This document shows positions 3,439-3,990 of a stretch of DNA of 64,000 nucleotides, in pieces. The stretch is taken from assembly GCA_902788975.1 (NCBI GenBank), contig CADAMI010000012.1, positions 5,148 through 69,147 on the forward strand, read 5' to 3'. The notes under the pieces are model-generated. The model had not been told where the DNA came from and made no database searches. It saw only the letters and a program-made list of their open reading frames with translations. The stretch comes from an uncultured Erysipelotrichaceae bacterium. Lineage in GTDB: Bacteria; Bacillota_I; Bacilli_A; RF39; UBA660. Numbering within the stretch: position 1 is the first letter of the stretch; each line of letters starts with the position of its first letter. The position numbers and the translations under genes are program-made.

Positions 3439-3990
3439 GTGTATACAGTGAAAAAAATTGGAAATTTTTTATTTGATATTGTCGTTGGAGTTTGGCTTAT
3501 TGTAGCTATATTTGTTACGATATGTTTGCTTTCATATAATGAATTTAAAGTTTCTGTTTTTGGAAATACTTCATTATTGATTATAGATAGCGATGCTATG
3601 GAGCCTGATTTTAAAGAGGGCGATCTCTTAATTATTAAGCGAAACAGCGATAATAAAATAAATGTTGGTGACAAGGTGTTTTATTATAATAGTGCATTGG
3701 ATAGTAATGTATGGATTTATTATGATACTGTTCAAAACAAAACACCAATTACCAGAGATGAAACGACTTTCGTTATAGATGGTGAGAAGGTTTCTAGTCA
3801 ATATATTATTGGTAAAGCAAACGGGTCGAAAGTAATGCATAAGGCCGGAACTTTTCTAGGAATATTTACATCTAGATGGGGTTTTATGTTCTTAGTAATA
3901 TTCCCAACATTATTTGCTATTATTTATGAAATAATGATGATAATTGATGCAAGACGTGAGTTAAAAATGGCTAGTAAAAATGAAGAATAA
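3439..3990 (+). CDS. SipW-like (ER/archaeal-type) signal peptidase I paralog, predicted catalytically inactive
   Basis: Same architecture as the two other SipW paralogs (N-terminal TM, xSxSMEP box, GD..V box, C-terminal TM). The Ser box reads DSDAMEP (Ala at the nucleophile position). The THR(I/V) His box of the other paralogs is absent (GDKVFYYNSALDSNVW). Confidence 0.6.
   Translation: MYTVKKIGNFLFDIVVGVWLIVAIFVTICLLSYNEFKVSVFGNTSLLIIDSDAMEPDFKEGDLLIIKRNSDNKINVGDKVFYYNSALDSNVWIYYDTVQNKTPITRDETTFVIDGEKVSSQYIIGKANGSKVMHKAGTFLGIFTSRWGFMFLVIFPTLFAIIYEIMMIIDARRELKMASKNEE

Follow-up and report, generated by a model that had tools for sequence, protein, structure and literature searches.

Signal-peptidase homologues that do not cut, and that serve the building of surface filaments, have been known so far from one lineage, namely the P-type SipA of sortase-dependent streptococcal pili. 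In SipA of Streptococcus pyogenes (LepA, PDB 4N31), the catalytic Ser is replaced by Asp and the Lys by Gly while the peptide cleft is conserved, and the protein, encoded in a Gram-positive surface-filament cluster, is essential for pilus polymerisation without proteolysis (PMC4049620). In the lineage of SipW, the Bacillus subtilis enzyme has a reported second, peptidase-independent role (Terra et al., 2012, cited in PMC4551309), and for BsaA of Clostridium perfringens it was proposed that TasA-like subunits polymerise while still tethered by their signal peptides, before cleavage by SipW (PMC11580942). Signal-peptidase proteins also belong to the CoCoPALM systems, which were named in one paragraph by Bell et al. 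(2024, eLife), with details deferred to a later publication; there these proteins were called likely pilus assembly factors. Here, we describe W1, a SipW/Sec11-type pseudo-signal-peptidase encoded on the plus strand at 3448-3990 of a 64,000-nt stretch of contig CADAMI010000012.1 (hereafter the window) from an uncultured Erysipelotrichaceae bacterium, where it opens a gene cluster carrying also two active-type paralogs, W2 and W3.

Loss of the catalytic residues in W1 and its family

The listing of open reading frames (ORFs) places W1 at 3439-3990 (+), and residue numbers used throughout refer to this mechanical ORF of 183 amino acids. GTG at 3448, giving 180 residues, is likely the true start, since MKKIG begins 111 of 121 orthologues, the 180-residue form is called elsewhere and a ribosome-binding site is located nearby (GGAGAG at 3433-3438, with the GTG 9 nt downstream). 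The product initiated there begins MKKIGNF. The gene and the elements assigned to it are as follows:

3331..3353, plus strand: terminator-like hairpin 3′ of the htrA-like gene, left edge of the unit
3389..3417, plus strand: promoter-like site 5′ of W1, TTTAAA, 17-nt spacer and TG-extended TATAAT (consensus match only)
3448..3990, plus strand: W1, SipW/Sec11-type pseudo-signal-peptidase, 180 residues from GTG at 3448 (mechanical ORF from 3439)
3466..3537, plus strand: transmembrane (TM) helix 1 of W1, residues 10-33, ending in FVT[IV]CLLSYN (orthologue alignments, AlphaFold2 (AF2) model, entropy)
3586..3606, plus strand: Ser-box remnant DSDAMEP with Ala53 at the nucleophile position (codon and alignments)
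3709..3732, plus strand: His-box equivalent VWIYYDTV, devoid of His (alignments)
3865..3948, plus strand: C-terminal TM helix of W1, residues 143-170, motif [TE]S[RK]WGF.F..FP.L....YE (alignments, AF2 model, entropy)

W1 is a full-length homologue of SipW/Sec11 signal peptidases, i.e., of the endoplasmic reticulum (ER)/archaeal, S26B-like type. Profile comparison by hhalign matched its family over the full length with the families of W2 (98.1%, E = 1e-13) and W3 (97.9%, E = 3.6e-13), and the best PDB sequence match of the W1-family profile was, by a narrow margin, the engineered S56A mutant of SEC11A. The AF2 model (predicted local distance difference test, pLDDT, of 81) comprises a helix at residues 2-29, strands at 35-130 and a helix at 143-179, so that N- and C-terminal TM helices are predicted on either side of an outer beta domain; a Foldseek search with this model returned SEC11A and SEC11C as best hits (probability 1.0), followed by SipA (4n31). 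Conservation of the TM topology, noticed already in the first-pass annotation of this DNA, is thereby upheld. At the same time W1, a relative of SipW, neither shows the catalytic features by which SipW is defined nor reaches the score thresholds curated for the family. The NCBIfam SipW model (NF046067) covers residues 6-182 with E = 4.5e-11 and 42.7 bits, below the cut-off of 190, and the archaeal-type TIGR02228 gives E = 2.5e-10 and 40.4 bits, below 51.85, the latter threshold being exceeded by W2 and W3 (67 and 78 bits); the P-type model TIGR02227 matches a partial region only (E = 1e-4).

The nucleophile position of W1, lying within residues 46-58 (LLIIDSDAMEPDF), is occupied by Ala53 encoded by GCT at 3595-3597. 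Both paralogs keep the Ser box and the His box (VASGSMEP and IITHRII in W2, VVSESMMP and ITITHRII in W3), precisely as the first-pass annotation had claimed when it proposed that W1 has Ala in place of the nucleophile, lacks the His box and is catalytically dead. An alternative alignment supplying a Ser/His pair from elsewhere in W1 was rejected, as the catalytic Ser is matched by Ala53 in every one of three independent alignments, made by MAFFT with the paralogs, by HMMER with SEC11A and by hhalign with each of the W2 and W3 families; in the family profile, IIDSDeLEPeF is aligned to VVLSGSMEPAF of SEC11A with position 53 facing Ser56. The alignments contain no His between residues 57 and 133 of W1 and no His box in its orthologues. 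The His-box region aligns ambiguously (to I93 or D96), with no His within reach, and the sole His of the protein, H134, follows the IIGK motif and is replaced by Pro in most of the distant orthologues. The positions aligned to the triad Asp (Asp122 in SEC11A, Asp115 in W3) vary as well, accepting D, N, G, A or E at 114 and G, N, D or S at 115, while this Asp is invariant in W2 and W3.

Among 121 close orthologues position 53 is Glu in 78, Ser in 18, Ala in 17, Asp in 3 and Phe in 2, with single occurrences of other residues, whereas M/L54, E55 and P56 are fixed, and those members that do have Ser at this site are still without any His box. The same freedom is seen at the level of 63 species-level genomes, where the nucleophile column comprises 25 Glu, 10 Lys, 7 Asp, 7 Asn, 4 Ser, 3 Gln, 3 Thr, 2 Tyr, 1 Ala and 1 Gly (2.67 bits), while W2 from these genomes keeps its Ser, His and two Asp in 63-64 of 64 cases and W3 its Ser, His and Asp in 54 of 54. 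Scanning of 1.84 billion representative proteins yielded 329 clusters of the W1 family at E ≤ 1e-10. Nearly all of the best 150 representatives are devoid of both boxes, the Ser box being affected by deletions in many of them; what is kept in this set is a pair of membrane motifs, FVT[IV]CLLSYN where TM1 ends and [TE]S[RK]WGF.F..FP.L....YE in TM2. The loss of catalytic Ser, His and Asp is thus a trait of the W1 family, and Ala53 is the local state of a freely varying site, occupied mostly by Glu in close relatives.

The predominance of Glu raises the question of whether W1 could still be a hydrolase employing other residues, for instance this Glu together with neighbouring Asp residues, the more so as the segment D50-S51-D52-x-M-E55-P is acidic. 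Such a possibility appears very improbable, given that the site is Ala in the window protein and Lys, Asn, Gly, Tyr or Phe elsewhere in the family, that in the outer domain conservation across the family extends to no column of Ser, His, Lys or Cys, nor to any other polar one, and that mutation of the analogous Asp in SipA was without effect (PMC4049620).

A separate observation concerns a 176-residue protein, P0254 (L067:22-552), which combines the TM2 motif of W1 type (ESKWGFMFFVILPTLFALVYEI) with an intact Ser box, ATGSMEP, and with TDHY in the His-box region. Its contig of 575 bp gives no gene context. Judging by these motifs, P0254 may still be active and represent a stage intermediate between SipW and the family of pseudo-peptidases.

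Purifying selection and the location of constraint

The codon GCT is separated by one base from the Ser codon TCT, and one might suspect either a sequencing or assembly error or a decaying, functionless duplicate. This explanation is rejected and, as a whole, hardly deserves credence: the identical 180-residue protein, Ala included, was found on at least 22 independently assembled contigs in 72 index blocks, and the ratio of nonsynonymous to synonymous substitution rates (dN/dS) calculated against four relatives is 0.11-0.16 for W1, as compared to 0.16-0.32 for W2 and 0.11-0.26 for W3, these values being rough as dS is near saturation. The absence of the His box along with the nucleophile, the invariance of 35 of approximately 180 columns in 73 orthologues and the size of the family described above are equally at variance with error or decay. 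In total 120 orthologues with 63-98% identity were found. W1 is therefore neither an artefact nor a relic, and the catalytically dead state suggested by the first-pass annotation withstood the family-wide comparison.

Averaged over all columns, the entropy of W1 (1.57 bits) is similar to that of W2 (1.74) and W3 (1.56), though its distribution along the protein is reversed. Mean column entropies (bits) of the three segments are:

W1: TM1 1.26, outer domain 1.78, TM2 1.15
W2: TM1 2.05, outer domain 1.47, TM2 2.09
W3: TM1 1.76, outer domain 1.39, TM2 1.72

Constraint thus resides in the membrane helices of W1 and in the catalytic domain of W2 and W3. All this characterizes W1 as a protein under purifying selection, which is probably kept as a non-enzymatic membrane component. 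As to the scaffolding role that the first-pass annotation supposed W1 to retain, the dN/dS values, the conservation at the level of the paralogs and the preserved helices fit it, and the role itself is considered below as a proposal.

Besides the helices, conservation extends to the positions which in SEC11A accommodate the signal peptide. In the structure showing the signal peptidase complex (SPC) with substrate, the h-region of the latter lies between TM1 and the C-terminal helix; the S3 pocket is formed by V50, V52, V84, P93 and V95, the S1 pocket by M57, F61, V52 and V95, and the gate by W36 and T153 (PMC13385932). Profile alignment gives the following W1/SEC11A equivalents: Y33/W36, L47/V50, I49/V52, M54/M57, F58/F61 and F81/V84. 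Each of these W1 positions carries a hydrophobic or aromatic residue, and the prevailing one (at position 54, either M or L) is shared by 81-100% of the 121 orthologues.

Gene cluster surrounding W1

W1 is followed by twelve genes, so that the cluster has the order W1-T1-W2-T2-T3-X-McrB-like-DUF2357-W3-T4-T5(reverse)-T6-T7. In a sample of 66 genome loci, all from metagenome-assembled genomes of uncultured gut or rumen Bacillota, synteny of these genes holds for about 60 species, in which identity of W1 falls to as little as 36%, and W1 is nearly always the first gene. The remaining members are:

3980..4546, plus strand: T1, secreted beta-sandwich protein with signal motif T-Y-A|L-F; 11-nt overlap between its start and the stop of W1
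4556..5431, plus strand: W2, active-type SipW (Ser59, His96, Asp111, Asp117) with a charged cytoplasmic tail of 125 residues
5432..6958, plus strand: T2 (5432-6037) and T3 (6041-6958), secreted, signal motifs T-x-[AGS]|[RK]-Y
6970..7947, plus strand: X, conserved cytoplasmic protein of 325 residues
7951..9480, plus strand: McrB-like AAA+ GTPase, 509 residues, with N-terminal TM helix and coiled coil
9490..10599, plus strand: McrC-like protein with DUF2357 domain (Pfam PF09823)
10604..11131, plus strand: W3, active-type SipW (Ser47, His90, Asp115)
11118..11768, plus strand: T4, secreted, signal motif T-F-A|W-F
11765..12370, minus strand: T5, secreted relative of T1, signal motif T-Y-A|K-Y
12591-13304, plus strand: T6, membrane protein with a single TM helix, without T-x-A motif
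13318-14505, plus strand: T7, signal motif T-Y-A|W-F

T5 alone among the cluster genes runs on the opposite strand, as it does in nearly all loci. T1-T5 and T7 share an N-terminal hydrophobic helix followed by T-x-[AGS]|[LWKR]-[FY], conserved in their orthologues, a motif which resembles the TasA signal peptide. An NCBIfam scan of the T proteins gave no match to signal-peptide models. T1 is modelled as a beta sandwich in which a disordered segment follows the signal helix, and searches gave for it a generic beta-sandwich fold match and nothing specific. X had no match in Pfam, NCBIfam or PADLOC. No sortase was present among the cluster proteins scanned, and no LPXTG-like motif occurs in T1-T7 or in the two large proteins encoded further downstream.

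The GTPase and McrC-like genes (7951-10599) are the most conserved of the cluster. The GTPase leads, with mean column identity of 76% over 30 species, and retains 59-94% identity where neighbouring genes fall to 25-50%. Its family profile matched McrB (PDB 6hz4, E = 1.2e-4), the Walker A, Walker B and signature motifs falling in register; GTINNDDS is aligned to GLMNTADRS of McrB, so the signature can be read either as NxD or as NxxD. The candidate-defence GTPase model PDC-M26A of PADLOC gave E = 3.8e-34. As read from the sequence, the TM helix of this protein is followed by a heptad-like segment; its likeness to FtsB is weakly supported (FtsL_2 in 5 of 30 members, E = 0.016). The partner protein contains DUF2357 (PF09823, E = 4.6e-11, 42.9 bits, above the cut-off of 23.3), which is the N-terminal domain of McrC.

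In these features the cluster fits the CoCoPALM architecture: a McrB-like GTPase with TM helix and coiled coil, a DUF2357 homologue of McrC and associated signal-peptidase proteins, here three paralogs. Beyond the description of Bell et al. (2024) are the division of the peptidases into one dead and two active paralogs and the presence of T-x-A substrates. A literature search did not find a later paper on CoCoPALM, and the mention of McrB in the paper on C. perfringens BsaA proved to be an E. coli strain genotype.

Outside the cluster, two genes are located directly upstream (1214-3324), one of the Abi_2 family (abortive-infection-like) and one encoding a trypsin/PDZ protease of HtrA type; they are kept in this place only in the closest relatives. 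T7 is followed by a protein of 2689 residues with N-terminal signal anchor (14536-22605) and by a protein of 508 residues (22733-24259), neither having a Pfam or NCBIfam match; they may serve this system as adhesins or as parts of a tip. Further downstream, 24339-29534 encodes an Amidase_3 protein with four LysM repeats, a response-regulator/HD-domain protein and a hybrid histidine kinase, which could constitute its cell-wall and regulatory module. The window, with GC content of 27.3%, contains also a DUF3800-I RNA motif at 57639-57764 (-) (56 bits, the gathering score being 44) and tRNA genes at 38587-38657 (-) and 56710-56782 (+).

Proposed role of W1 and comparison with known systems

On balance, we lean towards W1 being a non-cleaving assembly factor that binds signal peptides or TM segments and would be to the ER-type lineage what SipA is in streptococci; what we infer here is that signal peptides are bound, which protein is the client and the assembly role. 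W1 would use for this purpose the retained signal-peptide-holding parts, i.e., the two helices framing the h-region, the aromatic residue with which TM1 ends, the first strand of the beta domain and the hydrophobic S1/S3 positions. It would bind, without cutting, the signal-anchor of at least one secreted T-x-A|aromatic protein, most likely T1, whose gene overlaps the W1 stop, and would hold or present the membrane-tethered subunit during filament assembly, leaving cleavage to W2 and W3. W1 may also link this assembly across the membrane to X and the McrB/McrC-like GTPase module. Both SipA and the BsaA pathway are precedents fitting such a role.

Several points weigh against this reading. Binding, complex formation and the filament itself are, for W1, proposals drawn from sequence, and gene overlap is what the guess at a client relies on. 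The T proteins gave no Pfam or PDB sequence match, and their likeness to TasA could not be demonstrated. The groove was mapped by sequence alignment and not by model coordinates. Since M-E-P of the Ser box is deleted in more distant members of the family, the classical S1 pocket cannot be essential family-wide. For SipA itself, no binding of peptide or pilin was detectable in vitro (PMC4049620).

A bolder version, which seems to us rather unlikely, assigns W1 the part of membrane coupling subunit in a hitherto uncharacterised Gram-positive filament machine driven by nucleoside triphosphates. Its two conserved helices would grip between them the uncleaved signal-anchor of the basal subunit, which W1, via X and its own cytoplasmic face, would link to a membrane-anchored GTPase ring, GTP hydrolysis driving or gating the assembly, release or retraction of sortase-independent filaments. 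To our knowledge, the McrB/McrC-like GTPase module is otherwise known only from DNA/RNA restriction.

The cytoplasmic tails of the paralogs are relevant for two other explanations. Alignment-anchored tail lengths determined for 50 loci, with a charged tail of at least 60 residues regarded as long, revealed 15 loci where W2 alone has a long tail, 8 where W1 alone does, 2 where W3 alone does and 23 with no long tail at all; W1 and W2 never have it both. In the clade of the window the K/E-rich tail belongs to W2 (residues ~167-291), while in another clade (loci among L024, L037, L041, L046, L049 and L055) a tail of 130-220 residues with repeated TEEEKKALIEAKLKSM belongs to W1.

By analogy with the accessory subunits of eukaryotic signal peptidase complex, W1 might join W2 and/or W3 in a hetero-oligomeric peptidase as the subunit without catalysis, tuning membrane environment or substrate choice rather than holding substrates. 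The mutually exclusive tails, as if one per complex suffices, would agree with this, and so would the invariable co-occurrence of the three paralogs in the cluster and the conservation of W1 primarily in its TM helices, as expected for helix-helix packing. The distribution of tails, however, follows clades, amounting to about three independent events, and the loci without any long tail are numerous; the conserved S1/S3-equivalent positions would be needless for an inert packing subunit, and bacterial SipW-type enzymes, such as SipW of B. subtilis, function alone. We consider this arrangement possible but improbable.

The long charged tail of W1 in one clade, with its repeated TEEEKKAL motifs, would fit W1 being mainly a transmembrane adaptor joining the X/GTPase/DUF2357 module to the outside and passing force or signal, the peptidase domain being a docking knob. 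Support comes also from P0301 (L068:5855-7900), a protein of 681 residues in which a W1-like pseudo-peptidase is fused in frame to an X-like domain (BLASTP 2e-11) and the stop of which overlaps the start of the McrB-like gene; L068 has a compact cluster with two pseudo-SipW proteins, one fused and one standalone, and one active SipW. Invariance of the TM helices and membrane-proximal residues of W1, as well as the membrane anchoring and extreme conservation of the GTPase, point in the same direction. Yet the fusion is found on a single metagenomic contig and may be an assembly or frameshift artefact, the same data set containing other long fusions of obviously chimeric appearance (P0296 and P0261); none of the 120 closest X homologues, nearly all of 325 residues, is fused; and the cytoplasmic tail of W1 in the window is only 13 residues long. 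This option is, in our estimate, still less probable than the accessory subunit. Both are compatible with W1 acting as an assembly factor.

In terms of known systems, SipA shares with W1 the signal-peptidase fold without catalytic residues and the location in a surface-filament cluster; among structural matches of the W1 model it ranks third, behind the two SEC11 paralogs. The differences are in descent, SipA being derived from P-type Ser/Lys peptidases and W1 from the Ser/His type of ER and archaea, in partners, namely a class B sortase and LPXTG pilins on the side of SipA and a cluster without LPXTG-like motif on the side of W1, and in architecture, W1 having an additional C-terminal TM helix and its strongest conservation in the membrane. 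By this comparison, W1 appears SipA-like in role while standing outside the SipA family, so that the same change would have arisen independently in the SipW/Sec11 lineage and in a sortase-independent cluster.

SipW of B. subtilis (tapA-sipW-tasA operon) belongs to the same ER-type lineage, has the same topology with two TM helices and adjoins genes of secreted fibre proteins with signal peptides of T-x-A|aromatic type, as the SipW proteins of our cluster do; an arrangement with a SipW-type gene beside T-x-A substrates is common to TasA/camelysin systems (tapA-sipW-tasA, sipW-bsaA). Its peptidase-independent function was correctly cited by the first-pass annotation (Terra et al., 2012, cited in PMC4551309). 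This parallel is a loose one, because B. subtilis SipW is still an active enzyme while W1 is devoid of Ser, His and Asp, and SipA offers a closer precedent (PMC4049620). Neither a described SipW pseudoenzyme nor a conserved dead paralog among CoCoPALM peptidases was found in the literature search. An analogy only is provided by membrane pseudoproteases such as iRhoms, which lost catalytic residues and retained recognition of TM segments of their clients (PMC7618786); they are eukaryotic proteins of the unrelated rhomboid fold.

Comprising its 329 clusters, the W1 family has no dedicated Pfam or NCBIfam model, although it has a clear signature (a nucleophile site free to vary, TM motifs that do not, and a neighbouring paralog that is active). 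Its members should not be named signal peptidase I, as is done in at least one source (P0066). For CoCoPALM clusters, common in uncultured gut and rumen Bacillota and lacking a described function, W1 offers a concrete handle. Finally, SEC11A and SEC11C, the best fold matches, have a Ser-box region aligned to that of W1 residue by residue, and their pocket and gate positions are retained in W1; they are catalytic and work with unrelated accessory subunits, while W1 is non-catalytic. In this regard, W1 may be viewed as a naturally occurring parallel to the substrate trap that was engineered as SEC11A S56A.

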